From NCBI GenBank assembly GCA_016196125.1, contig JACPYG010000006.1, positions 1 to 52,510 of the forward strand: DNA of 52,510 nucleotides. Direction: 5' to 3'. Origin of the DNA: Candidatus Staskawiczbacteria bacterium. GTDB lineage: Bacteria; Patescibacteriota; Minisyncoccia; Minisyncoccales; Staskawiczbacteraceae. Under the pieces are notes generated by a model. The model was not told the DNA's origin. It made no database searches and was given only the letters and a program-made list of their open reading frames with translations. Positions 1-44,985 of the stretch are shown piece by piece (within the stretch, counting starts at the first letter, position 1; each line of letters begins with the position of its first letter). A program made the position numbers and the translations under genes.

Positions 1-3000
1 ACCCTCTATTGTAGCAATATCCTGCGAATCTGCAAATATGTGCTTTGTAATTTTTGGAGTCGCGGCGGCGCTGTCTGCATTATAGAATTTGGTCGGATAA
101 AAAGTGGTTGTGGCGCCGTTGGAATATTTTATTCTCTGGCCTGAAGGATCATAGCCATAAGTAATTATGGCTGAACCAGCAGGAATGGCAGTATTATAAA
201 TAGAACTTTTAACTAAGCGATTATTATAATCAAAAGTATGGCTTTTTTTATAATCTCGCTGTGAACCTACCGAGTAAATTTCTGTTGTCATATTGCCATT
301 GTTGTCGTAAGTAAAATTTGTTGTACTGGCGCCATTGCTAATACTGGTAAGCGCATGAGGATTTGCATAATTATTTCCAGTATTGCCGGCATATGAATAT
401 GCATAAACTATTGTTGGGTTCGCGCCAATGGTTTCATTTTTAGTTAATATGTTGCCAATGGCGTCATAACTGAAAGTTTGGGAATAAGCGCTTTGACCTG
501 CGGCAACATTGGTTATATTGGCAGAAATTAAACGATAAAGGTCATCGTAAACATATTGAGAAGTTTTGGAGGCGATGTTGTCTGACGCATCAACTATTTT
601 GACAATGTTTCCAATAGCATCGTAGATATAGCTTAAATTCTGGCCATTTATTCCGCCTGCAACAGCAGTAATTTTATTGTTTAGTCTGTAAAGTTTTGCG
701 GCGTCATAATTATTTGAAGTGACAACTCCGTTGGCATAAGAAATAACAGTTGCCTCCGCAGTCGGCGAATAGTCAATGTTATTTACCACATCAATAAAAT
801 TGACATCTGCCCTTTCTTTTCTTTGAATTTTATCAATCAGCCCTGCGGAATTATAAATATTTTTGACCTGTGAATTATCGGGATTGGCGATGGTAATTTG
901 ATTGCCCTGCCTATCATAATCGTAAGCGGTTAAATAACCTCCAACTACAGCGCTCATAATCTTTGACTCGGTTTTAAGAAATCCCAAAGCGTTATAGGTG
1001 TTATTTTGAATCAGATTTGAAGATGAAAAACCGGTAAGACGGCCTTTGCCGTCTGCTCCTCTATCATAAGTATTTACGACATCAATACCAATGCTTCCGG
1101 TATAATCTTCGGTCAATTGCCGGTTTATATTGTCGTAGGTATAATTAACAGTTTGATTATTTGGACTAATTTTTTGAGTCAGATTTCCGGCATCATCGTA
1201 GCCATATTTCCAAACGCCAAAAGTTGCATCAAATGGAGCATGCAGGTCTTCTGCGGTTAATCTTTGGCCAAGTCCGTCATAAGTAAAACTGCGGATATTG
1301 CCCAAAGCATCTGTAATCTTTGTGATGTTTCCCAAATAATTATAATTATAAAAAGTGGAATATATATTACCCGAATTGTGCTCGTCAACCTGAATAAGAT
1401 TTCCATAAGCGTCTTTATATAAGTATTTAATTTTGTTATTTACGTCGTAAATTATAAGCTTCCAATCTTGGTAATAATTAGTGACAGCGCCAACCGAATT
1501 AGTAGACTTATATATACGACCTATAGGATCATAAATATAATTTGTGTAAAGATTGTAGTCACCGGTTGGCGAAGTTCTGATTTGACCTGTGGAAAAATAA
1601 GGCAAAGATTCTTTTTCTAAAAGCCCGAGACTATTATAAACATAATCTTTTACTGTAAAATTTGAATCTTCAGCCTCCGCCCTTTCCTGGATTTTTCTGC
1701 CCAAAAAGTCAAAGTAAACATAACTGTCAACAATATTTGAGCCGTCTAAATAATCTGATTTTTTAACGCTTACGGCGTTTGGAGTATCTGTGTAAACATA
1801 AGTTGTTTTGGCGACTAAAGTTGACGGCGTTATTAAATCCGGCTGTTTTTCTTCTGTTAATCTGCCTAAACCATCGTAAACATATTGAAATACCCTTGTG
1901 TTGGGGTCGATTTTTTGGGTAATTTGCCCGGATGAATAATCATACTTATATTGGGAAACATGGTTTAAAGCATTGGTTACTGCGGCTGGATAAAGATTAT
2001 AAGCGTCATAGGAATATTGAGTAATTTTACCCCGAGGATCAGTTGATGACTGCATCAAGCCATAGCTGTTATAAGTTTTTTGGTTATTAATATAGGTGGC
2101 GCCGCTTTTCCAATCCTCTTGCTTGGTAAGGTTTCCCTTAGACAAAATTCCGAGCGGCAAAGAATCATAATGATATAATCTTTCTTTAACTTTGTTTCCG
2201 TTTTGATCAAATGTAGCGGCGCCTGATACTTGATACTTAATGCTAAATGCTTCGTTTGCATAAGTGTAATTTGTGGTAAATTTATCTTGTCCGATATCTG
2301 AAAAAGTTCCATTGTCTTGCCCAGCCACTTCGCCCCATTGGATTTTTTGAGTCAAGTTTCCATTACTATTATCATATATATAACTTTCAGCTGTATCTCT
2401 GTGAGTAGCATTGCCGTCAAAAGTATAATTTACCGATTGAACCAACTTTACAAATTTACTGCCAGAGGCCAAATCATAACTATCCCATTTATTTACAACT
2501 GCTTGGTAGAGATTGCCGGCGCTGTCATATTTTTCAATTCTGTAGGGCTTGCCTATTTTAAAATAATTATCCTGGAATTCTCCGCGGGCAGAATCGCTTT
2601 CGTTGGCCGTATGATAATAAGTTTTAGTAATATTACCGGCCAGATCAGTTTCTGCGACCAAATCATAACCGGCAAATTTTCTGTCTGTCGGATTATTATA
2701 ATAATAATGTCCGCCTGTATATTGATAAGACGAGCTTATATCATTTTCCAATCCGTCATTGGTAATAATTTTGTTTACGGTGAATATTAAATAAGGAGAT
2801 TTATTAGCCGGATTTCCAAGTCCATCTGTATATTGAGCCGTTGTTTTGTAATTAACAGTCGTATTGCCGCCCTGCGGATAAGTTATTTGGCTTAATAAAT
2901 CTTGCTTTGACCCGGTATTTATATATTCAAAATCCTTATTCACAGCATGGCTGGTTTTTCTTATTTCTACGAGATCCTCTAACCCATCGCCATTAAAATC

Positions 3001-5370
3001 TGTAAATTGTGGCATCGAATTAATGCTTTGCATAGTGTTCCAGGAGACTAATACCCATTTGTCGTTTGTATATCCAAAAAAGATATACGGTAAATTCCAG
3101 CCATTGCCATTATTAATATAACCGATGCGTTGATTGGTATTGTTTAAATAAAAATTTTCAACCAAATCGGGAAATCCGTCATTATTAAAGTCTACAATCT
3201 GGCTTTTTAATATGGAACTATCCTGGGGTTTTGGAAAATTCCACTCAGAGCCGGCCTGCGTCCAGCCAGAACCATTGTTGATATAAATATCGCTATTCTC
3301 GCCCCCTGGATACTCCGGGCCATTTGGAAGAATATCGCCCTTGTGAGAAATAACCATATCGGCAAGACCGTCTCCATTTAAATCGGGAAATTTTAAATCT
3401 ATAACAGTTGAATTTCCGGCATGCCAATTATTTAACCAAAAATTCATTGGCTTAAGATTCCATGAAGAATTAGCCTCTGTCCATCCAGAACCGTTATTTA
3501 TATATACAAATTCTTTAAATTCAAAATATGGAGAAGAATTATCCGGCTCGGCGTCAACTTTGATGATTTGTATAAAATCAGACAAGCCATCACCGTTAAG
3601 GTCTACAAAGTATTTTTGCCATGACCAAGGATTTATGGGATACAATCCTGATGGTATATCTGGCAGTTTCCACGAAGGATTTGCTTGGCTCCACCCATGC
3701 CCGTTATTAATATAAATATGATTAGTAAAAGTATTGTTTAAATCATCGGGCGGATATCCATCAACGCCGACTCTTTCAACTAAATCTGGCAAACCGTCTG
3801 CATTAAGGTCTGGAAAATATACTTCTCCCAAGCCGCAATCACAAACACCAAACTCATCAAAAAAATAACTAGGCAGACCCCACGAAGAACTGCCGGGTAA
3901 TTTCCATTCGTTTAATTGTGGAGTCCAGCCATGGCCGGTATTTAAAAATTCCGCATCTCTTTTATACTGATAAATATCACCCTCTACCCTGAATCTTGCA
4001 ATAAGCGTAACTAGATCTGGCAAGCCATCGGCGTTGAGGTCTGGTGAATATGATTCCAAATTGTTTCCGGCGCTGACCTGAAAATCGCTTGCTGGATTTG
4101 GAAAATTCCAATAAGTATCTGCTGGTATCCAATTAGTAACAGATGAAGATTGATAATCAAAACTTGTCTCGGGTAAAGAAATAATATTTCCGATATTATT
4201 CTTGCCAGACATTGTTATTGATTTTAACAAAGACCTGTTTGTGTCTTGGCTTTTTTCGTAGGATAAAATATATTTTCTCACCCAATCGTTATTTGCCCTT
4301 ACATTAATTTCATTGATTAAATAGTTGGAATTTACGGCAAATCCTGTAGCGTGTGAAACAGCATTATCTGTTCTTGCGATTCTTTGAAAGCTGACTTTAA
4401 AAATACCCTCTGCAGCGCCATTATTTGTGTATTTTATGGATAAAGGATAAATTTGGCCTGCATCTTTAAAATATAAATAAGAGATATAATTGCCGTTAGT
4501 GTCTCTTACTTCCTGCAACATCCACTTATATGTGTCGCTCGGACTTGCCGAGTTATTTTGCTGAGAGGAAGTATTGTAACCAAATTTATATTCTGCGCCG
4601 TCTTTTGTGGTAACAAGCCACTTATTTTCAGAAAATACGTATTTATTAAAGCTTCCATTTTCGATTTTTGGAACATAAGAAGAACCGGAATAATTTACTA
4701 ATTCCCCATCAAGAGACGAATAAAAGTAATTTGGAAAAGATGGATCATATAACTTATCAGAACCGGACTTATTCAATCTTTGTATATACGGGATATTTAA
4801 AGTCCAGCCATAGCCAAAAACACTTCCTTGAACTGAATCCTGGCTGTTGTACTGTAATTTTAAATCTGGCTGCATTCCATTGCGGCCAGGAGGAACAGTA
4901 ATGGAATAATTATATACTAAAGCTCCGGTTGCGGGATCGAGTTCCGGAATAAGCTGTTTTTGAGAGGTTAATGAATTTGATAAAGAAGATGTGTCGGAAG
5001 GCGATTCACCTATTGCATTAGTTTCGCCTTCCGGAGAAATCTCATTATCTTCTTCATTGATAATATCGGTCAAAATATCTTCTTTAAATTCATCGACGGC
5101 GCTGACCGCATCGTCGGGATTTGATTCTGGAGAAATATCAGGTTCAACATCGGAAAACACTTCATCTTGGCTGTAATTATCAGCGATATCTGATTGCTCA
5201 ACAATATCTGTATCTAAAGAATCTGTAAAAATAGGGTCGCTATCTGAAAAATCGTCAAAGGCAAAAACCGGGGCCAAAGGAGCCGCAAAAAACACAAACA
5301 TCAAAAACACCGCAACTAACTTCAATAGTTGTTCTTTATCTCTTTTATAAGTATTTAATAGTTTCTCCAT
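1..5370 (-). CDS. Large secreted SpvB/TcdB-like + FG-GAP + RHS/YD-repeat protein (3' end outside window)
   Basis: Read by hand; same frame is open at every position spot-checked. ATG at 5370 gives MEKLLNTYKRDKEQLLKLVAVFLMFVFFAAPLAPVFA (signal-like), then an acidic linker, SpvB-like PELDPATGALVYNYSITVPPGRNGMQPDLKLQYNS..FGYGW, DxNxDGxxD repeats (~2970-4050) and YD repeats. It ends ..KITKHIFADSQDIATIEG at the edge. Confidence 0.9.
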   Translation of the reverse strand, partial: MEKLLNTYKRDKEQLLKLVAVFLMFVFFAAPLAPVFAFDDFSDSDPIFTDSLDTDIVEQSDIADNYSQDEVFSDVEPDISPESNPDDAVSAVDEFKEDILTDIINEEDNEISPEGETNAIGESPSDTSSLSNSLTSQKQLIPELDPATGALVYNYSITVPPGRNGMQPDLKLQYNSQDSVQGSVFGYGWTLNIPYIQRLNKSGSDKLYDPSFPNYFYSSLDGELVNYSGSSYVPKIENGSFNKYVFSENKWLVTTKDGAEYKFGYNTSSQQNNSASPSDTYKWMLQEVRDTNGNYISYLYFKDAGQIYPLSIKYTNNGAAEGIFKVSFQRIARTDNAVSHATGFAVNSNYLINEINVRANNDWVRKYILSYEKSQDTNRSLLKSITMSGKNNIGNIISLPETSFDYQSSSVTNWIPADTYWNFPNPASDFQVSAGNNLESYSPDLNADGLPDLVTLIARFRVEGDIYQYKRDAEFLNTGHGWTPQLNEWKLPGSSSWGLPSYFFDEFGVCDCGLGEVYFPDLNADGLPDLVERVGVDGYPPDDLNNTFTNHIYINNGHGWSQANPSWKLPDIPSGLYPINPWSWQKYFVDLNGDGLSDFIQIIKVDAEPDNSSPYFEFKEFVYINNGSGWTEANSSWNLKPMNFWLNNWHAGNSTVIDLKFPDLNGDGLADMVISHKGDILPNGPEYPGGENSDIYINNGSGWTQAGSEWNFPKPQDSSILKSQIVDFNNDGFPDLVENFYLNNTNQRIGYINNGNGWNLPYIFFGYTNDKWVLVSWNTMQSINSMPQFTDFNGDGLEDLVEIRKTSHAVNKDFEYINTGSKQDLLSQITYPQGGNTTVNYKTTAQYTDGLGNPANKSPYLIFTVNKIITNDGLENDISSSYQYTGGHYYYNNPTDRKFAGYDLVAETDLAGNITKTYYHTANESDSARGEFQDNYFKIGKPYRIEKYDSAGNLYQAVVNKWDSYDLASGSKFVKLVQSVNYTFDGNATHRDTAESYIYDNSNGNLTQKIQWGEVAGQDNGTFSDIGQDKFTTNYTYANEAFSIKYQVSGAATFDQNGNKVKERLYHYDSLPLGILSKGNLTKQEDWKSGATYINNQKTYNSYGLMQSSTDPRGKITQYSYDAYNLYPAAVTNALNHVSQYKYDYSSGQITQKIDPNTRVFQYVYDGLGRLTEEKQPDLITPSTLVAKTTYVYTDTPNAVSVKKSDYLDGSNIVDSYVYFDFLGRKIQERAEAEDSNFTVKDYVYNSLGLLEKESLPYFSTGQIRTSPTGDYNLYTNYIYDPIGRIYKSTNSVGAVTNYYQDWKLIIYDVNNKIKYLYKDAYGNLIQVDEHNSGNIYSTFYNYNYLGNITKITDALGNIRSFTYDGLGQRLTAEDLHAPFDATFGVWKYGYDDAGNLTQKISPNNQTVNYTYDNINRQLTEDYTGSIGIDVVNTYDRGADGKGRLTGFSSSNLIQNNTYNALGFLKTESKIMSAVVGGYLTAYDYDRQGNQITIANPDNSQVKNIYNSAGLIDKIQRKERADVNFIDVVNNIDYSPTAEATVISYANGVVTSNNYDAAKLYRLNNKITAVAGGINGQNLSYIYDAIGNIVKIVDASDNIASKTSQYVYDDLYRLISANITNVAAGQSAYSQTFSYDAIGNILTKNETIGANPTIVYAYSYAGNTGNNYANPHALTSISNGASTTNFTYDNNGNMTTEIYSVGSQRDYKKSHTFDYNNRLVKSSIYNTAIPAGSAIITYGYDPSGQRIKYSNGATTTFYPTKFYNADSAAATPKITKHIFADSQDIATIEG

Positions 5371-11852: not shown

Positions 11853-11928
11853 CGCGGGCGACGGGATTTGAACCCGTGATCTTTCCCGTGACAGGGGAAT
11901 ATTCTAAACCAGGCTGAACTACGCCCGC
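11853..11928 (-). tRNA. tRNA-Asp(GTC)
   Basis: Cloverleaf GCGGGCG..TTCCC-CTGTCAC-GGGAA..GGTTCAAATCC..CGCCCGC-G; CCA not encoded. Confidence 0.95.
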
Positions 11929-11955: not shown

Positions 11956-12028
11956 TGCCGGCGACAGGGATCGAACCTGTGACCTTACGCTTATGAAACG
12001 TATGCTACTGCCACTGAGCTACGCCGGC
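11956..12028 (-). tRNA. tRNA with CAT anticodon (elongator Met or Ile2)
   Basis: GCCGGCG..TACGT-TTCATAA-GCGTA..GGTTCGATCC..CGCCGGC-A. Confidence 0.9.
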
Positions 12029-12050: not shown

Positions 12051-12081
12051 TAGTTTTTAGTTATAAGTTATTGGTTGTTAG
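12051..12081. repeat. Degenerate 7-bp tandem repeats (left flank)
   Basis: TAGTTTT TAGTTAT AAGTTAT TGGTTGT TAG. Confidence 0.6.
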
Positions 12082-12421
12082 ATTTTATGCTTTTTAATAA
12101 ACCATGTAAAATCTTATTTACCAAATCACACTGTAATAATTCTTCTTTACAATTTATATTAAATAAATTTTCTATTAATTTAAATATGGCAATTGTTTCA
12201 TATAAAGACCTGATTGAAATTTCCAAGAATGAAACAAATATTTTAGAACTGCCGGCTCCACTGCCCTCTGTAATATTTAAAGAAACAGAAGTTACAGCGC
12301 GTTTTAATTGATCAATAAGTGCAAACTTTTCTTCCTTAGGCAACTTCTGGCTTAAAACATAAGATATCTTGGCTAACTTCATCGCCTCTTGCCAGGCCTT
12401 AGGTTTCTCAAAATTATACAT
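12068..12421 (-). CDS. Four-helix-bundle protein (23S rRNA intervening-sequence protein/bAvd-like family)
   Basis: FEK..AWQ, LPKEEKFALIDQLKRAVTSVSLNITEG signature. Confidence 0.85.
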   Translation of the reverse strand: MYNFEKPKAWQEAMKLAKISYVLSQKLPKEEKFALIDQLKRAVTSVSLNITEGSGAGSSKIFVSFLEISIRSLYETIAIFKLIENLFNINCKEELLQCDLVNKILHGLLKSIKSNNQ

Positions 12422-18866: not shown

Positions 18867-19286
18867 CTCAGCAAGATGAGTGATTGCTCCTTACGAAAGG
18901 AGAGGAAAGTCCGAACACCATCCCGCCATACATTTAATTTTATATGAAGGGCGGGATAAAATAATAGTGGCTAACAGCCACCCATAGCAATATGCGAGGT
19001 GCGAACAGTGACGTACAAAATCGAAAGATTTTGTATTCCCAGTTTTGGGAAAATTCTGCAGTAATGCAGAAGTGAAACGGCTAAATCCTTATTGGGTGCA
19101 AGAACAAAGTCCCGCCATTCATTTAAGGTTAACAGGAAAAACCTGAAAAATTTCATGTTTGAATATGAAATTTTTATCTCAAAAGATGGAGGGCGGGATT
19201 AAAAGTAGTTCGCTTGACCCCGATGGCAACATTGAGGGCAGATAGATAATCACATAAAACAGAATTCGGCTTATAGTCTTGCTGGG
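18867..19286 (+). ncRNA. rnpB: RNase P RNA
   Basis: P1 CTCAGCAAGA/TCTTGCTGGG, GAGGAAAGTCC, GTGAAACGG, ACAGAATTCGGCTTA. Confidence 0.93.
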
Positions 19287-19333
19287 GTAACAAAAAACTC
19301 GATGTTAAATCGAGTTTTTTGTTTGTATGATTT

Positions 19334-23347: not shown

Positions 23348-25243
23348 TCAAAATTTTATTGTCTGTCCCGGCTTAATTATTCCTGTTTTTTGTTGGTTTA
23401 ATTCATCTCCTGGCTTGTCCTGAGCCAAGTCGAAGGGTTCTTTGTTTTCTATTTTTTTTGGCGCTTCTATTGGCTCGGGCAGGTTTTTCTCTTCGAGCCC
23501 CGTTAGAGGCTTATTATTATTTTTACTAATTTCTTTTTCAGAATCATTAGTCCCTAACGGGGCAAGCGACTCTTCTAAAGCTTTTTTAAGTTCCGACAAA
23601 TTTATTTCTTTTCGTTTTACCTGCCTGTCGGCAGGCAGGGGTTTTTCTTCTGTCTTTGTTTGTGGCAACTTTTTAGGATTATGAAAAGGAATTGTTTCTA
23701 CTTTTTTATTAAATTGCTCTTTATTATTTTGCTCTTGCTTCTGAGGAACTTGTTCCTTATCGCTTGACTTTATTTTTTTTAAGCAGGATTTGCAATAGAT
23801 TGGCCTTCCCGGTTCCGGCTGGAAAATAACCTTAGTTGGTTTTTGGCACATAGAACAAATGGCATCGTAAAGTGTTGTCTGGGTTGCGGCCGATGATTCT
23901 GTCTCTTTTTTAGTATCCTGTTGAGGCGGAACAAGAGGCTTTACTGCCTGCACGTGCAAAGTATCGTCTAAAAAACTTGCCCAACGTGAAATTTTTTCCT
24001 GCACTATTTCGCTTTTAACTCCGTATTTTTCTTGAGACGCCCTAATAATTTTATCTTTATTTGACGCATCAATTAAAACTGGCGGCGGAAGAGTTTCTGC
24101 CGAAAAAGGGTGGCCGGCTATTCCATCAATCATTAATTTTAAATATATGTTATATTTTGGCAAATTGCATAAATCGGTAGCCGTAAATTCGGGAGTAAAT
24201 TCTTTTTCCAGAAATTCTGCATCTTCGGCTCCGACGCGAAAAACAACCAATGTGCCGACATTTCCAAAAACAGCGTCTCGGACGGTTTCTTCCATTTGGG
24301 TGATATATTGATGCCCCAAAATAAGGTTTAGCCTGTACTTTCTGGCTTCGGATAATATATTGGTAAAAGATTCTGTGGCAAAATTTTGGAATTCATCAAC
24401 ATAAAGATAAAAATCTTTTCTGTCTTCTTCTGGAATATCAACTCGAGACATTGCGGCCAATTGCAGTTTGGTAATCAGCAAGGCTCCTAAAAGTTTTGAG
24501 TTGTCTTCTCCTATTTTTCCTTTTGACAGATTCATAATCAATATTTTTTGATCATCCATTATCTCTCTCATATTAATTGTTGATTTTGTCTGGCCAATAA
24601 TATTTCTGACCAAAGGGTTTGAAATAAACTGCCCGACTTTGTTTTGAATAGCGGCAGTGGCCTCTATTTCGTATCTTTGAGTGTATCTGGCATATTCGGT
24701 AACCCAAAATGATTTAACTATGGGGTCTGTGATTTTATCAACCACTCTTTTCCTGTATTCTATATCGGCAAACATTCTGTTGACTCCCAAAAGAGTTGCA
24801 TCGGGGTATTCCAAAAGAGCCAGAATGGAATTATTTAAAATATACTCCATTCGCGCCGACCAAACATCGGGCCATACTTTTTTGAATACTCCCATTAATC
24901 CGGATGCCACCAAGTGCCTATACCTAAAATCAACCTTTTCCACAACATTAAAGGCAATTGGGTAATCTATATCCGAAGGATTGATATAAATCACATCATT
25001 GATTCTATCAGCTGGCACAAAATCAAGAATCTTTTCGGCTCCTTCGCCATGAGGGTCAATATAGGCTACTCCGCGGCCTGCCTGTATATCCTGGATTGCC
25101 ATCTGCTCCATCAAATTTGATTTGCCCATGCCGGTTTTACCAATGACATAAAAGTGCCGGCGCCTGTCGTCAATTTTTATGCCAAATTTTTTTCTTGCAT
25201 TGCGAAAACTGGTTAATCCAAAAAATACTATATTATTATCCAT
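23348..25243 (-). CDS. VirD4/TraG/HerA-like ATPase with CxxC-x17-CxxC domain
   Basis: GKTGMGKS, IDPHG, YVDEFQ, EARKY, CSMC..CKSC; low-complexity tail. Confidence 0.85.
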   Translation of the reverse strand: MDNNIVFFGLTSFRNARKKFGIKIDDRRRHFYVIGKTGMGKSNLMEQMAIQDIQAGRGVAYIDPHGEGAEKILDFVPADRINDVIYINPSDIDYPIAFNVVEKVDFRYRHLVASGLMGVFKKVWPDVWSARMEYILNNSILALLEYPDATLLGVNRMFADIEYRKRVVDKITDPIVKSFWVTEYARYTQRYEIEATAAIQNKVGQFISNPLVRNIIGQTKSTINMREIMDDQKILIMNLSKGKIGEDNSKLLGALLITKLQLAAMSRVDIPEEDRKDFYLYVDEFQNFATESFTNILSEARKYRLNLILGHQYITQMEETVRDAVFGNVGTLVVFRVGAEDAEFLEKEFTPEFTATDLCNLPKYNIYLKLMIDGIAGHPFSAETLPPPVLIDASNKDKIIRASQEKYGVKSEIVQEKISRWASFLDDTLHVQAVKPLVPPQQDTKKETESSAATQTTLYDAICSMCQKPTKVIFQPEPGRPIYCKSCLKKIKSSDKEQVPQKQEQNNKEQFNKKVETIPFHNPKKLPQTKTEEKPLPADRQVKRKEINLSELKKALEESLAPLGTNDSEKEISKNNNKPLTGLEEKNLPEPIEAPKKIENKEPFDLAQDKPGDELNQQKTGIIKPGQTIKF

Positions 25244-33254: not shown

Positions 33255-34154
33255 TCACTTTCCTGCTGCGCACTGGTTAAAAAAATTAACCTGATTATTG
33301 TATTGCGTAATAAGCAACCTGGATTCATCTGCAATCAATTGGTACTGCCTGACCAGCTCATTGTACTGGTCTGCTAAATTATTATATTGTTCGCCGCGAT
33401 GCTTTGTATTATTAAGTTCGTTGCGTTTTTCGTTAATTTGAAAAATCAAATTATTTAACTGGCTTTTATAAGAATCAATTTGGTTTTTTAAGCTATTCAT
33501 AGGTTTTGGGCAGGCAGAAAGCGGCAAACCAAATTCTTGCACTCCTATCCAAACTGTATTTCCTTCGTAGCTTCCTTTAATAATGGCAACTCCAATTTCG
33601 GTGTAACGACCATTTAAAATATTGGCCCTATGACCCGGGCTGTCCATCCACAATTGCACTAATTCTTTCTCATTTTCAAAATTGCCCAATATTAAATTTT
33701 CACCGGTAACTATATAGTCATATCCATAGCTTGAAACCAATTCGGCAGGGCTCATTCCAGAAGGAGAAACATGCTCAAAGTATTGTTTGAGAAACATATC
33801 CTCGGCTTTGGCCTTTGCCGCCGCATTTAGAGCGACGTTCTCAATAAGCGGAAGCAATCCGCCATTATCAAACCTTTGGATATTACTTTCTGCAATTATT
33901 TTTACTTTTGTTAAAACCGCCTGGTTCGCCTTGCCGCCTGCATTTAATGGAGGAGGAGTGAAAACTTCTTTACTTATTTCTGTTATTAAATTACCAATTT
34001 CTGTTTTTTGGAAATTCTGGAAATTATTATTAAAATTATCATAGATTTTTAAAATACTTGTCCTGAGAAAATTAGAAGGATTGTCTTTAAACCAAAATCC
34101 GGTTATAAGAACCAATAATATTACCGCTAAAATTATTATTTTAGATTTTGCCAT
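33255..34154 (-). CDS. CAP/SCP-domain protein with C-terminal coiled coil
   Basis: YFEH, GENL, WMDSPGHRANIL; start MAKSK. Confidence 0.88.
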   Translation of the reverse strand: MAKSKIIILAVILLVLITGFWFKDNPSNFLRTSILKIYDNFNNNFQNFQKTEIGNLITEISKEVFTPPPLNAGGKANQAVLTKVKIIAESNIQRFDNGGLLPLIENVALNAAAKAKAEDMFLKQYFEHVSPSGMSPAELVSSYGYDYIVTGENLILGNFENEKELVQLWMDSPGHRANILNGRYTEIGVAIIKGSYEGNTVWIGVQEFGLPLSACPKPMNSLKNQIDSYKSQLNNLIFQINEKRNELNNTKHRGEQYNNLADQYNELVRQYQLIADESRLLITQYNNQVNFFNQCAAGK

Positions 34155-36630
34155 GGCACTTTTTATATTTTTTGCCTGAACCGCAAGGACATGGGTCGTT
34201 TCTGCCAGCCTTCTCCTGCTGGCTTTGGATTGGCAAGCTAACTTCGTTTGGAATCTGATGATTTTGAGGCTGTAAACTGGCCTTAAAAACAGAATTGGCA
34301 ATACTCATATCAATGTCTTCCAGCAACCTCTGAAACATTTTACGGCCTTCGTTTTTATATTCAATTAACGGATCGTATCCTCCAAAAGCCCTTAATCTTA
34401 CCGAGTCTCTTAAGTGGTCCATATTTGAAAGATGGTCTTGCCAAAGAGTGTCTTGAACCTTCAAACTTACTGCTTTTTCCAACTGAAACATATTGTCCCT
34501 GCCAAGTTCTTCTTCTCTTTTATTATAATTCTCTTTTGTATAGCCTGCTAACTCCGCCATTTTTATGATTTGTAATTTTAGGTCTTCCGGTTGTATCTCT
34601 AATATTTCTTTCCTTTTTTTGTAAATAATTTCTCTGTGCTTATTCATTACATCGTCGTATTCTAAAAGATGGTGCCTGGCATCAAAATTGAATCCTTCAA
34701 TTTTTGATTGGGCAGATTCAATGGCTCCAGAAAGCATACGGGCTTCTATCGGCTCATCTTCCGGCACTTTTAAAACGGTCATCAAAGATTTCACTCTGTC
34801 TCCGCCAAAAATCCTCATTAAGTCATCTTCCAAAGAAACAAAAAACTGCGAAGAACCATGGTCTCCCTGCCTGCCAGCCCTTCCTCTCAATTGGTCGTCA
34901 ATTCTCCTTGCCTCGTGGCGCTCCGTTCCTAAAACATGGAGTCCGCCAAGTTTTTTAACTGCCTCTGCTTCTTTGATGCTCGATGGATTTCCGCCCAAAA
35001 TTATATCAACTCCGCGGCCTGCCATATTTGTGGCAATAGTAACAGAACCTCTTTTTCCTGCCTGCGCAATAATTTCTCCTTCTCTCTCATGATTTTTAGC
35101 ATTTAAAATTTGATGTGGAATGCCCTGCGTTTCCAGCATTTTTCCCAATAATTCATTTTTCTCAACAGACCTTGTTCCCACTAAAACCGGCTGTCCTTTT
35201 TTGTTCAACTCTTTTATTTCATTTACTGCCGCAATAAGCTTGCCATTTTCTGTTTTAAAAACCTTATCTGGATAATCCCGCCTTACCATGGGTTTATGGG
35301 TGGGAATTACGGCAACATCTAATTTATAAACCTTGTCTAATTCTTCTGCCGAAGTCAAAGCGGTTCCCGTCATACCGGATATTTTTTTATAAAGTCTGAA
35401 ATAATTTTGAAAAGTAATCGTGGCAAATGTAATGGATTCCGGCTGGATTTTGACTCCTTCCTTTGCCTCTATTGCCTGATGAAGCCCGGAAGACCAACGT
35501 CGTCCAGGCATAAGTCTGCCTGTAAATTCATCAATAATTATAATTTCACCGCTCTTTACCCCGTTAGAGGTTCGTTTTTCTTGTATATTCCCAGAGTTTC
35601 CCTGACCTCTAACGGGGCTTACCACATAATCCCTGTCTTTTAAAAACAAAACCTTGGCCCTCAAAGCTGATTCTAATTGATGCGTAACGGCAATATCGTT
35701 TTCCTGCCAGGGATCCTGGCCCAAACTTTTTACAACTTTATTCTGGCCCTCTTCCGTAAAAGTTGCTGTTTTCATTTTTTCATCTAAAATATAATCGTCT
35801 TTTTTATTTAGCGGAAGCACAACTTTGGCAAATTGATAATATTTCTCTGTTGCCTCTTCTCCGGCTCCTGAAATAATAAGAGGAACGCGCGCTTCATCAA
35901 TTAAAATTGAATCTACTTCGTCAACGATGGCAAAATTATACCCCCGCTGGACTTGATATTGCAAATCGTAAACCATATTGTCTCTTAAATAATCAAAGCC
36001 AAATTCATTGTTAGTGCCATAAGTGATGTCGGCATCGTATGCCTCTTTTTTTGTCGCAGGCCTTAAAAAATCTTGCACAACCTTAAAAGAACCAACTAAA
36101 TCCCGCTGTTGGTCTTTTTCAGTATTTATATATGAAGCGTCGTAAATGTATCCTGATTCATTTGTAATGCATCCGGTAGATAGCCCCAAAGCGCCATAAA
36201 TCTGGCCCATCCAAACCATATCTCTTTTGGCTAAATAATCGTTTACCGTAACAATATGGACCCCCTTTCCTTCTAAGGCGTTTAGATATGCCGGCAAAGT
36301 GGCAGATAAAGTCTTACCCTCGCCGGTTCTCATTTCGGCAATTTTGCCTTGATGTAAAACAATTCCTCCGATTAATTGCGAATCGAAATGGCGCTGGTTT
36401 AGAGTTCTTCTTGCCGCCTCTCTAACCAAAGCAAAAGCCTCGGGCAGAATATTGTCCAAACTTTCTTTTAGCGCCAATCTATTTTTAAAATCTTTTGTTT
36501 TTTCTTTTAACTGTTCAGCCGAAAGTTTTTCCAGTTTCGGCTCAAAAGAATTTATTTTTTCGATTATAGGCGCTAAACTTTTTATATATTTTTCATTAGG
36601 GTCTCCAAATATTTTAGTAAAAATTGACAT
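34141..36630 (-). CDS. secA: Preprotein translocase ATPase SecA
   Basis: MRTGEGKT, DEVDSILIDEAR, ATNMAGRG, GRNDPCPCGSGKKYKKC. Confidence 0.98.
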   Translation of the reverse strand: MSIFTKIFGDPNEKYIKSLAPIIEKINSFEPKLEKLSAEQLKEKTKDFKNRLALKESLDNILPEAFALVREAARRTLNQRHFDSQLIGGIVLHQGKIAEMRTGEGKTLSATLPAYLNALEGKGVHIVTVNDYLAKRDMVWMGQIYGALGLSTGCITNESGYIYDASYINTEKDQQRDLVGSFKVVQDFLRPATKKEAYDADITYGTNNEFGFDYLRDNMVYDLQYQVQRGYNFAIVDEVDSILIDEARVPLIISGAGEEATEKYYQFAKVVLPLNKKDDYILDEKMKTATFTEEGQNKVVKSLGQDPWQENDIAVTHQLESALRAKVLFLKDRDYVVSPVRGQGNSGNIQEKRTSNGVKSGEIIIIDEFTGRLMPGRRWSSGLHQAIEAKEGVKIQPESITFATITFQNYFRLYKKISGMTGTALTSAEELDKVYKLDVAVIPTHKPMVRRDYPDKVFKTENGKLIAAVNEIKELNKKGQPVLVGTRSVEKNELLGKMLETQGIPHQILNAKNHEREGEIIAQAGKRGSVTIATNMAGRGVDIILGGNPSSIKEAEAVKKLGGLHVLGTERHEARRIDDQLRGRAGRQGDHGSSQFFVSLEDDLMRIFGGDRVKSLMTVLKVPEDEPIEARMLSGAIESAQSKIEGFNFDARHHLLEYDDVMNKHREIIYKKRKEILEIQPEDLKLQIIKMAELAGYTKENYNKREEELGRDNMFQLEKAVSLKVQDTLWQDHLSNMDHLRDSVRLRAFGGYDPLIEYKNEGRKMFQRLLEDIDMSIANSVFKASLQPQNHQIPNEVSLPIQSQQEKAGRNDPCPCGSGKKYKKCHGKI
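35559..35617. repeat. Miniature inverted-repeat element inside secA
   Basis: 13-bp perfect IR CCCCGTTAGAGGT/ACCTCTAACGGGG. Confidence 0.85.
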
Positions 36631-43759: not shown

Positions 43760-44985
43760 TTTATTCTCCTCTTAATAAGTTCTTTCAGCTCCTTTTCCAT
43801 TCTACCAAAAAATAATCTTTCATCAAATTCTTTTTCAGCCTTTTTTCTGCCCGACTCGCCCATTAGTTTTGCTTTATCTGGATTTAAAATAAGATAAATA
43901 ATAGCTTCTGCCAATTTTTTATAATTTTTGGGCGGCACCAAAAGACCGGTAATATTCGGCTCCACTGCTCCCCGGCATCCTCTAATATCTGTGGCTATTA
44001 CAGGCCTTGCCATCGCCATAGCCTCCATAATGCTATGGGAAAAACCCTCTCTATAAGAAGGCAAGACAAAAATATCCATTAAAGAATAAATCTCATCGAC
44101 ATCTGTTCTTTCTCCTAAAAATAAAATATTTTTTTCTATGCCGAAATTTCTAACTATATTAAGATTAATATTATCTTTTTTGGATGGATCGGCCGAACCA
44201 ACTGCCAAAAGCAAAGAATCAGGGAATTTTATAACAACACTTTCAAATGCTCCAAAAAGTTCTATATATCCTTTTTCCGACACTAATCTTGCCACTATTC
44301 CAATAATCGTTTTTTTTGGATCAATCCCCATCTTTTCTTTCTTTTCTTTAATAAAATCCGAAGTAAACCTTTTGGGATTAAAATGCAAAATATCAATTCC
44401 ATCTCCTATGTGCTCTGCCATACTGTTTCTGATAATTTTCTCTTTCTTTGCCGTCTCGAAATCTTCTTTGTTCCTAAAAAATACGAAGTCAGAGCATTTA
44501 GCCGCAATTTTTTCAATAAAAATAAAAAATCTTCTTTTAAAATAAGGCGTCCCTTCGTGAAAATAAAAACCGAAAATAGTATTTAAAATAATAGGCGCCC
44601 CGGCCGCTTTGGCTGCCAGTTGGCCCAATAATCCCGGTTTTGGAGTAAAGGTGAATACAGCACCAAAATTTTCTTTCTTAAAATAAAAAAATAATCTAAA
44701 AAGAGAAATTAAATCTGAAAACGGGCTGAATGCTTTTCTTTTTATTTTTATAGTTTTTACTTTAACCCCCTCTTTTTTAATGCTTTCAACCCATTTTCCG
44801 GGAGAACAAACAGCATAAACATCATATCCTTGCATTATTAAAAATTTAAGATTTGAAAGCAATAAAAATTTTAAGGTAATATCAACACTTGCCACAAAGC
44901 AAATTTTAATTTTTTCCTGCCTGCCGGCAGGCAGGCCTGATCTGTCGGCAGACAGGGATTTACCTTGTATCAATGCTTTATTCAT
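43756..44985 (-). CDS. GT4 glycosyltransferase (PglA/CapM-like)
   Basis: PSYREG....MEAMA; start MNKAL. Confidence 0.88.
   Translation of the reverse strand: MNKALIQGKSLSADRSGLPAGRQEKIKICFVASVDITLKFLLLSNLKFLIMQGYDVYAVCSPGKWVESIKKEGVKVKTIKIKRKAFSPFSDLISLFRLFFYFKKENFGAVFTFTPKPGLLGQLAAKAAGAPIILNTIFGFYFHEGTPYFKRRFFIFIEKIAAKCSDFVFFRNKEDFETAKKEKIIRNSMAEHIGDGIDILHFNPKRFTSDFIKEKKEKMGIDPKKTIIGIVARLVSEKGYIELFGAFESVVIKFPDSLLLAVGSADPSKKDNINLNIVRNFGIEKNILFLGERTDVDEIYSLMDIFVLPSYREGFSHSIMEAMAMARPVIATDIRGCRGAVEPNITGLLVPPKNYKKLAEAIIYLILNPDKAKLMGESGRKKAEKEFDERLFFGRMEKELKELIKRRIK

Follow-up and report, generated by a model that had tools for sequence, protein, structure and literature searches.

Rickettsia palindromic elements (RPEs) are described as repeats of approximately 150 bp that lie in frame inside many Rickettsia genes (PMC10969869, PMC3733652). 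In the accounts given in the same sources, the MITEs of bacteria (miniature inverted-repeat transposable elements), such as Correia/NEMIS, RUP, ERIC, and Nezha, are 70 to 300 bp long with repeats of 15 to 30 bp, lie mostly between genes, and do not range beyond a genus or family. Repetitive extragenic palindromes (REPs), which have GTAG or CGTC as their defining tag and a link to Y1 transposases (REP-associated tyrosine transposases, RAYT), have also been reported in the coding sequences of some species, where such "REP-tagged proteins" (Di Nocera et al. 2013) are encoded by DNA repair, ligase, helicase, and tRNA-modifying genes (PMC3733652). Here, we analyze a 59-bp palindromic element that lies in frame inside secA on a 52,510-nt stretch of DNA from Candidatus Staskawiczbacteria bacterium (assembly GCA_016196125.1, contig JACPYG010000006.1); the whole stretch is referred to below as the window. 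The results indicate that the secA palindrome is most probably a copy of a nonautonomous, MITE-like DNA transposon family that is adapted to in-frame insertion.

Like the RPEs, members of this family are small noncoding palindromes that lie in frame in unrelated housekeeping genes and add a peptide without destroying the protein. An earlier reading of the window, made from the nucleotide sequence alone (the original prediction), had drawn the comparison with RPEs, and it holds as an analogy, in that both types of element insert in frame into many housekeeping proteins. The secA element is set apart from the RPEs, as these are described, by host (Patescibacteria) and size (59 bp versus approximately 150 bp) only; the family as a whole differs in a 12-nt terminus shared across several phyla, a clear 4-nt target duplication, and a length rule of 2 mod 3. 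In structural terms, and apart from a parent element, which was not found in the window or near the 80 loci searched, the family is a MITE, with small size, terminal repeats, a 4-nt duplication, dispersed copies, and both filled and empty sites. With the MITEs described so far it shares terminal inverted repeats, target duplication, many copies, the lack of a transposase gene, and a presumed mobilization in trans; unlike them, it is shorter, crosses phyla, and seems adapted to coding DNA (the length rule, stop codons confined to one frame, and a depletion of stops). Its list of host genes (LigA, UvrD, RecD2, TsaD, and TsaC) resembles that of the REP-tagged proteins. Unlike REP/RAYT systems, the ends read CCCCGTTAG... 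on both sides, with a 4-nt duplication and with neither a tag nor, in the window and the neighboring ORFs scanned, a Y1 domain; unlike IS200/IS605-derived palindrome-associated elements, the family has 21 different duplicated 4-mers and symmetric ends. A full-text search, with subscription journals and supplements outside its range, returned no paper describing the family, and the matches to a 9-mer were, by their listing, primers and unrelated sequence. What looks new is the spread over several phyla, the very small size of the elements, and a design that is neutral to the reading frame.

The palindromic element in secA

The element, its flanks, and its host gene are arranged in the window as follows.

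34141..36630, minus strand: intact secA gene encoding 829 aa, host of the element (ORF list, translation, Pfam, and matches to SecA structures)
35559..35617, no strand assigned: palindromic element of 59 bp, made up of two 13-bp terminal inverted repeats and a 33-nt loop
35559..35571, plus strand: terminal inverted repeat arm CCCCGTTAGAGGT (repeat search)
35605..35617, plus strand: terminal inverted repeat arm ACCTCTAACGGGG (repeat search)
35555..35558, plus strand: flank TTTA, which reads TAAA on the coding strand and lies 3' of the element in secA, the intact copy of the target duplication (family register)
35618..35621, plus strand: flank CTTA, which reads TAAG on the coding strand and lies 5' of the element in secA, the copy of the duplication with one changed base
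35559..35621, minus strand: 63 bp, or 21 codons, in surplus over insert-free SecA, with the peptide SPVRGQGNSGNIQEKRTSNGV

The secA product contains the Pfam domains SecA_DEAD, SecA_PP_bind (residues 260 to 388), P-loop_SecA, SecA_SW, and SEC-C and matches solved SecA structures with E values down to 4e-219. The element lies wholly within the secA frame, with no room for a gene of its own. The 13-bp perfect terminal inverted repeats named in the original prediction are present (13 of 13 nt, or 100%, complementary and 33 nt apart). The GTAA direct repeat that it reported 63 bp apart is also found (TTAC on the plus strand at 35556 to 35559 and 35619 to 35622), but comparison with the family gave a better register, namely, the 4 nt that abut the CCCC...GGGG ends, which read TAAG and TAAA on the coding strand and match in 3 of 4 bases. 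The 3' junction consists of GGGG, then TAAA, then G, and fits the target pattern of the family described below. Because of the flanking repeat, the boundaries of the surplus 63 bp can be slid by up to 4 nt. The inner part of the element is a purine-rich loop on the coding (minus) strand, with a purine fraction of 0.71.

The best protein matches of the window are to Candidatus Staskawiczbacteria-like members of the Patescibacteria. The window is A+T-rich (34.8% G+C), and the secA palindrome is its only perfect 13-nt inverted repeat with a G+C content of at least 7/13 and a loop of at most 80 nt. A comparable G+C-rich 13-nt inverted repeat was found in none of 200 windows randomized with a first-order Markov model, while the secA 13-mer itself occurs three times in the window when up to two mismatches are allowed (0.38 expected). 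The folding energy of a 75-nt stretch at the element is −28 kcal/mol (z = −4.9) for RNA and −13.5 kcal/mol (z = −6.2) for DNA, and in each case none of 200 shuffles folded as well. No terminator-like site was found at the element, and Rfam 15 gave no match there (positions 35300 to 35900 at E ≤ 10; the window at the gathering score).

SecA was aligned by MAFFT with its 120 best homologs, which were 70 to 85% identical by BLASTP. At the protein level, the insert is missing from 117 of the 120 homologs, including the 11 closest, which are the empty sites that the original prediction had proposed to look for. In the insert-free proteins, DYV(V/T) runs directly into VK-x-GE; the estimate of about 21 aa inserted into this normally contiguous motif proved accurate, since the query has exactly 21 additional columns. 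A pairwise BLASTP comparison with P0003, the nearest relative on the SecA tree, gave the same clean 21-residue gap. The insert lies within the preprotein cross-linking domain (PF01043), which spans residues 260 to 388 in the query and 260 to 367 in the insert-free homolog P0002, and its site corresponds, by manual count in the alignment, to a gap just before N355 of Thermotoga maritima SecA (4ys0_A). Three homologs (P0013, P0081, and P0104) have other short insertions of 8, 3, and 3 columns (PSAVSGQD in P0013) directly after the VK that follows the site, and this turn therefore tolerates extra length. A protein search with SecA residues 326 to 368 returned 19 candidates and none at E ≤ 10, the query being too short for the database.

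The 21-aa insert also occurs in P0021, P0023, and P0107, where its site, its orientation, and its end peptides match those of the query. These end peptides are fully conserved, while the middles have diverged (NSGNIQEKR, VIEGPQTKQ, and DFEGVQKKQ). The first inserted residue is Asn in the three homologs and Ser in the query, because one base has changed in the 5' copy of the duplication. In a SecA tree computed with FastTree after removal of the insert columns, the four carriers fall in three places, each nested among insert-free branches with a local SH-like support of at least 95, and at least three changes are required.

A second case of a shared site was found in tsaC (Sua5/YciO/YrdC family), where three Nomurabacteria loci (L032, L045, and L066) have an element at one position. 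The elements of L045 and L066 are identical at 48 of 50 bases, with flanks that are approximately 80% identical, judged by eye from the alignment. The concerted changes that L045 (TCTA) and L066 (TCAA) show in both copies of the duplication were considered as proof of independent insertion, a use that is weakened by the pair in L032 (TCGA and TGGA) and by the variable base being a synonymous Val position.

A dispersed family of short palindromes

One genome per species was scanned for CCCCGTTAGAGG and CTAACGGGG separated by a gap of 20 to 50 nt, with total lengths of 41 to 71 nt allowed. At least 117 loci were recovered, compared with approximately 8 chance matches expected in 596 Gb (our own arithmetic, assuming uniform base composition). 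Together with a second copy in the window, they answer the question raised in the original prediction of whether the termini occur elsewhere; as most SecA homologs also lack the insert, neither of its two refuting conditions holds. The family statistics given here rest on 118 copies, a sample in which perfect termini were required and which therefore favors young copies. Carriers comprise at least 96 isolate labels, with taxa as labeled in the records. Those of the Patescibacteria span many lineages, namely, Saccharimonadota, Nomura-, Nealson-, Kaiser-, Kerfeld-, and Yanofskybacteria, and one Staskawiczbacteria. Among the matches listed, 12 loci are from Omnitrophota, 12 from Planctomycetota, and 5 from Nitrospirota; further carriers are Ratteibacteria, Chloroflexota, Thermodesulfobacteriota, and a few bins labeled Pseudomonadota or Actinomycetota.

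The family consists of terminal inverted repeats that start with CCCCGTTAGAGG and enclose a variable inner part of approximately 17 to 47 nt, for element sizes of 41 to 71 bp (28 to 31 bp in a few copies). The termini are common to the 118 copies, the inner parts differ, with one or two hairpins in subfamilies other than that of secA, and the length classes differ by multiples of three. Three subfamilies can be distinguished. One of them, of 59 nt, includes the secA copy and has a loop that is rich in purines and largely unpaired. The fetched copies nearest to the secA copy are those of L078 and L082, both of 59 nt and with the same inner ends GGTCAGGG...CGAAC; the former lies in holA of an unclassified bacterium, and the latter, in the genome of another Staskawiczbacteria member, has the duplication TAAA/TAAA. 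Saccharibacteria, Nomurabacteria, and other Patescibacteria commonly carry a second subfamily, of 50 nt. Copies of 62, 65, or 68 nt form a subfamily with a Y fold containing two 7-bp inner hairpins, which is common in Omnitrophota and present in Patescibacteria. An alignment of 20 copies of this Y subfamily revealed many two-sided changes in the first inner hairpin (columns 15/35 are A-U in 10 copies and G-C in 9; columns 19/28 are G-C in 12 and A-U in 7). No Rfam family matched any of 18 loci tested at E ≤ 1.

The family carries the marks of transposition. An exact 4-nt repeat flanks 69 of the 118 copies, whereas controls offset by 4 to 20 nt gave 1, 3, 5, and 1 of 118; exact 5-nt and 3-nt repeats were found at 3 and 7 copies, respectively. 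Twenty-one different exact 4-mers are duplicated, the commonest being TCAA, TTGA, TTTA, and TAAA, and the target preference is palindromic, G|TNNA|C (G in 33, T in 58, A in 53, and C in 39 of the 69 copies with an exact duplication). Copies are also nested. In L016, L110, and L093, outer copies of the 65-nt type, with TTTA or TCAA duplications of their own, hold inner copies of 29, 68, and 59 nt, respectively, at the same inner position of the outer copy; the 4-mers flanking the inner copies are exact repeats in L016 and L093 and read CTCG and CAAG in L110. Such duplications, the palindromic target preference, nesting, and scatter over many genes are the marks of transposition.

The nesting position (L016, 1459 to 1556; L110, 256 to 395; L093, approximately 256 to 386) is the 4-nt loop of a short CGCG...CGCG hairpin and looks like a hot spot that is set by context and not by the 4-mer. 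Two loci of one Nitrospirota bin, L026 and L053, have the same element and similar flanks with different duplications (CTCG versus TTTG).

Besides the two copies in the 52.5-kb window, approximately 6 to 8 more separate copies were found in approximately 243 kb of locus flanks by relaxed searches, which gave no copies in randomized sequence; this density is similar to that of the window. Solo termini located 1 to 1.4 kb from the seed copy in L005, L015, L033, and L039 were considered as the ends of a long element; they were rejected as such and are further small, decayed copies. A blastn search with a 50-nt copy gave no match in phages, and one with a 65-nt copy gave a single 27-nt match at chance level (E = 0.2) in plasmids.

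The second copy in the window is older and has the following position and host.

23498..23562, no strand assigned: second, older copy of the family, 65 bp, with the termini CCCCGTTAGAGGC and GTCCCTAACGGGG
23348..25243, minus strand: host gene of the second copy, coding for a type IV secretion coupling-protein-like ATPase that has a zinc finger and, at the C terminus, a low-complexity tail

Pfam matches in the host ORF are TrwB_AAD_bind, DUF87, and zf_Tbcl_2. The copy sits in the C-terminal tail, where the other permitted frame is used and yields APLGTNDSEKEISKNNNKPLTG, and its inner part has a purine fraction of 0.68 on the coding strand. Among the nine closest tails aligned, seven lack the copy, and in the two closest orthologs, P0122 and P0124, the corresponding stretch is a decayed version of it (VPLKT...KSLMK and TPLEV...KFLAD). 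The combination of decayed orthologous versions and insert-free homologs suggests that the copy decays in place like neutral sequence.

The coupling-protein-like tail seems to have collected three different small insertions. At 23412 to 23437, the G+C-rich GGCTTGTCCTGAGCCAAGTCGAAGGG encodes ...FDLAQDKPG..., a stretch that is absent from the nine closest homologs aligned and has one loose match, with 6 mismatches, in L078. At 23620 to 23639, a tiny G+C-rich palindrome in the same protein tail is read as ...LPADRQV.... It belongs to a second palindrome family, represented in the window by CCTGCCTGTCGGCAGGCAGG and CCTGCCTGCCGGCAGGCAGG at 23620 to 23639 and 44916 to 44935, respectively, and elsewhere in L015, L028, L041 (two copies), L045, L080, and L116; its core pattern occurs 9 times in the 303 kb of window and loci, in several phyla. 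In L045, an 18-nt version lies where the orthologous L066 has an 18-column gap, and this second family is therefore another small in-frame insertion. The SecA homolog P0003 has two insertions that are absent from the window SecA, of 14 aa (VPMAKPSRILDEIG) and 6 aa (LPLQAG) near residues 170 and 277, of which LPLQAG resembles the predicted product of the CCTGCC...GGCAGG palindrome family.

Fit of the elements to coding DNA

The length of the element is 2 mod 3 (41, 44, 47, 50, 53, 56, 59, 62, 65, 68, or 71 nt) in 93 of the 118 copies. With the 4-nt duplication, the insertion thus amounts to a whole number of codons, and at such lengths the terminal TAG and TAA share one frame, so that two of the three frames on each strand can be read through. 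The readable frames give peptides of the form x-PVRG...SNGV or T/A-PLE...PLTG, and these are the peptides seen. Stops are also depleted from the inner parts: 302 of 372 permitted reading modes are stop-free, compared with 271.8 ± 7.9 (maximum, 292) in 300 shuffles. A stop-free frame extending at least 40 codons to each side contains 45 of the 118 copies, of which 41 have lengths of 2 mod 3. The PVRG phase is used by 30 of the 45 genic copies and the PLE phase by 15. The length rule was likewise obeyed by 44 of 58 copies within short or uncertain frames, which makes it a feature of the family itself rather than just the result of a filter acting after insertion.

Pfam families were identified in 34 of 44 host ORFs. 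They include PGK, LigA (NAD-dependent DNA ligase), TsaD, class II aldolase, MurG, Mur ligase, RecD2, UvrD, TatD, YchF, FolD, ComEC, DNA polymerase III delta subunit, Alr (alanine racemase), ribosomal protein L22, ScpB, and a phage capsid-protease. By our own reading of the coordinates, a single domain match encloses the insert or is split by it in 17 of these ORFs. In L071, from a Pirellulales bin, two 59-nt copies (1501 to 1559 and 1618 to 1676) lie 59 nt apart in one long ORF that joins a Peptidase_S49 domain to a phage capsid domain; the family thus also occurs in prophage or phage genes, which are a possible vehicle between phyla.

In all 10 genic copies whose inner part has a strand skew of at least 0.1 in purine content, the purine-rich strand is the coding strand (P = 0.002), and both window copies follow this rule, which we read as selection at the level of the peptide. 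The purine-coding orientation gives loops rich in Lys, Glu, Gln, Arg, and Asn rather than in Phe, Leu, Ser, and Cys. The symmetric 50-nt subfamily is used in both orientations (...REGSQRPSA... and ...RGSLRALAA...), both in phase 2. The purine orientation and the frame and stop rules make read-through translation likelier than bypass or removal at the RNA level. As to the original prediction that the element donates peptide loops to an essential protein, the in-frame 21-aa insert was confirmed, while the frame and stop-codon statistics suggest that the peptide is made.

Further features of the window lie apart from the elements. A partial ORF of at least 1,789 aa that runs off the window end (1 to 5370, minus strand) has SpvB, FG-GAP, and RHS-repeat domains; the encoded protein, of the RHS/YD-repeat type, is very large, and the bacterium has a small genome. 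Next to tRNA genes at 11853 to 11928 and 11956 to 12028 lies an ORF (12068 to 12421, minus strand) of the "23S rRNA-intervening sequence protein" family (PF05635); the window contains no rRNA gene. A bacterial class A RNase P RNA (18868 to 19289, plus strand; Rfam score of 101.3 versus a gathering score of 100) spans 422 nt, compared with the 367 positions of the model, and therefore probably carries insertions.

Origin and meaning of the family

According to the interpretation that we favor, the element would have entered a TAAA spanning the Val-Lys codons, in the turn between DYVV and K-GE-IIIIDEFTGR, with duplication of the TAAA and addition of 21 residues to SecA. One duplicated base would have changed later, turning Asn into Ser. 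Mobilization would have occurred in trans, by a transposase making 4-bp staggered cuts. The insert would be translated and tolerated as a surface loop, and the copy would subsequently undergo neutral decay, as the second window copy appears to have done. The claim of a nonautonomous mobile element in the original prediction thus stands with regard to mobility, for which the family provides the transposition marks; "nonautonomous" is a deduction from the small size and the lack of coding capacity.

The duplication of variable 4-mers in a palindromic target points to a transposase with 4-bp staggered cuts, and the mobilizer would most likely be a DDE enzyme. IS1380 elements make duplications of 4 to 5 bp and have ends starting with CC (ISfinder family table), and piggyBac excision leaves no scar. 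The family resembles IS1380/piggyBac in its 4-nt duplication and C-starting ends, and scarless excision would fit its patchy presence; it differs in that the target is TNNA with a variable middle and not one fixed tetranucleotide. Prokaryotic IS1380-like elements have been paired with piggyBac (PMC5718144). An IS1380/piggyBac-like mobilization, with which the 4-nt duplication and C-rich ends are compatible, is only a lead. A Pfam scan of 45 window ORFs gave no transposase domain. In the 3-kb neighborhoods of L001 to L080, 177 of the 203 ORFs of at least 170 codons were scanned at E ≤ 1e-20 (the other 26 were host ORFs, which were scanned separately), and the sole transposase match was a DDE_3 fragment in L060. 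This fragment (positions 2 to 514) is the C-terminal part of an IS630-type transposase and lies approximately 1 kb from an element copy in an Omnitrophota bin. It was rejected as the mobilizing enzyme, as no family termini adjoin it.

Several observations weigh against the favored interpretation. Neither an autonomous element nor a transposase with the family ends, which the original prediction had proposed to search for, was found in the window or in the neighborhoods of the 80 loci. An exact 4-nt duplication is missing from 49 of the 118 copies, that of the secA copy is imperfect (3 of 4), and the second window copy is flanked by CGAG and CAAG. The same SecA site in three separate lineages implies either a strong site preference or conservation in place, neither of which is demonstrated, and the same choice is posed by the tsaC site shared by three Nomurabacteria with flanks that are approximately 80% identical. 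The 118 copies are biased toward perfect termini, and the counts are those of a sample. An ordinary MITE of the DDE type would have no need of inner hairpins with compensatory changes such as those of the Y subfamily, and these hint that one step depends on structure. Hydropathy did not differ significantly between the used and unused orientations (21/34; P = 0.23), and the case for translation of the insert is read from sequence.

The distribution in SecA might instead reflect one ancient insertion into secA of a Staskawiczbacteria-like ancestor, followed by vertical inheritance and precise, frame-restoring loss in most descendants. The four carriers are alike in site, length (21 aa), orientation, and end peptides and have diverged middles, a hairpin with a 4-nt repeat is a good substrate for precise slippage deletion, and excision by a piggyBac-like enzyme would leave no scar. 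However, the carriers fall in three places of the tree, each nested in insert-free branches with a support of at least 95, and one gain would need many more independent exact losses; the end peptides but not the middle are conserved, the ends of the second window copy do decay in orthologs, and tsaC elements identical at 48 of 50 bases in flanks of approximately 80% identity (by eye) fit a recent independent arrival better. A single ancient insertion is thus conceivable and rather doubtful. For the shared sites as such, repeated insertion at fitting, loop-tolerant sites is the explanation that we moderately favor, and long retention in place is the one to which we give only limited credence. 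A different possibility is that the palindromes are not selfish DNA but a selected cis-acting structure, a hairpin or three-way junction of RNA or DNA, that serves the host, for instance, in translation pausing between folding units, in mRNA processing, or as a recombination or uptake site; its usefulness would account for its spread or retention. The strong fold, the compensatory changes in the Y subfamily, the conservation of termini across phyla, and the persistence of perfect termini at orthologous sites in diverged flanks are in line with such a role. It is difficult to reconcile with variable 4-nt duplications, nesting, scatter over unrelated genes and intergenic DNA, decay of the old copy in orthologs, and the use of the 50-nt subfamily in both orientations within genes, which leaves no fixed RNA polarity; nor was there an Rfam match in the window or the 18 loci tested, or a terminator-like site. 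Integron attC sites, which have the inverse core site at the 5' end and the core site at the 3' end of an imperfect palindrome and lie in a cassette array beside an integrase gene, were rejected specifically: by inspection, the GTTAGAG-type box of the family is 5' and the CTCTAAC-type box is 3', the reverse order, and the window contains no array or integrase. A cis-acting host function is accordingly improbable.

The original prediction had proposed a search for a HUH/Y1 or other transposase, and single-stranded mobilization by such an enzyme, as an IS200/IS605-derived palindrome-associated element or a REP/RAYT-type repeat, would suit the hairpin shape and the conservation of structure beyond sequence in the Y subfamily. 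The HUH/Y1 enzymes of IS200/IS605 and REP elements insert beside a fixed short target and are not known to make a target duplication, so that the 21 exact 4-mers duplicated here are evidence against them, as are the symmetric ends and the lack of the REP tag (GTAG or CGTC); neither the window nor the 177 neighboring ORFs yielded a Y1 domain. REPs are reported to sit in coding sequences of some species (PMC3733652), and even so we consider this route very unlikely. Marginally less likely still is the idea that the insert never reaches the protein because the ribosome hops from GTA to GTA or the RNA is cut and rejoined. Identical GTA codons precede and end the insert, and the −28-kcal/mol hairpin starts just after the first, which recalls the matched take-off and landing codons of T4 gene 60 and the yeast mitochondrial "byps"; together with mitochondrial GC clusters, these are likewise short G+C-rich hairpins in A+T-rich coding DNA with matched border codons. 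The matched codons are, however, a trivial consequence of the target duplication. Unlike bypassed elements, the family keeps the frame and avoids stops, which bypassed inserts need not do (93 of 118 copies; 302 of 372 modes versus 272), and its orientation bias gives hydrophilic peptides (10/10); in secA, no stop codon follows the would-be take-off codon, and the 63 nt are an open frame. These differences make read-through the likelier fate. Finally, the window is probably a metagenome assembly, judging by its relatives, and chimeric reads can make palindromes, but a chance palindrome or an assembly artifact is so improbable as to be negligible in view of the 0 of 200 randomizations with such a repeat, the same-site inserts in three other independently deposited proteins, and the 118 copies with target duplications elsewhere.

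If the secA palindrome is a member of a transposon family adapted to in-frame insertion, the finding has consequences beyond this locus. Selfish DNA in frame within proteins has for the most part been regarded as peculiar to Rickettsia, and here it appears in the largest uncultured bacterial radiation and in other phyla. The single recognizable terminus makes the family easy to find and offers a source for unexplained insertions of 15 to 25 aa ending in PVRG...SNGV or PLE...PLTG in proteins from metagenome-assembled genomes. For protein evolution, the elements would be a source of new loops in essential, slowly evolving proteins such as SecA, DNA ligase, and PGK; for phylogenetics, a common insertion at one site need not mean common ancestry. 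With respect to mobile-DNA biology, the family seems to have been selected for frame neutrality and to have been transferred across phyla. The SecA with a 21-residue loop in the preprotein cross-linking domain is a directly testable case.

A broader proposal, which we put forward tentatively and with more doubt than confidence, is that the palindromes represent an undescribed, cross-phylum superfamily of hairpin or Y transposons of approximately 30 to 70 bp that have evolved to be harmless in coding DNA and that repeatedly hit permissive sites. Harmlessness would come from the combination of 2 mod 3 lengths with a 4-nt duplication, from the confinement of stops to one frame, and from turn-forming end peptides; the sites hit again would be those in SecA in three lineages, in TsaC in three genomes, and in one self-"slot" of the element in three genomes. 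If the reuse of sites and the conserved inner structure reflect the mechanism, the enzyme would be guided by structure or context and would excise without a scar, which would amount to a new kind of mobilization. Such a superfamily, if real, would provide a general route by which surface loops are gained and lost in the streamlined proteins of Patescibacteria and Omnitrophota.

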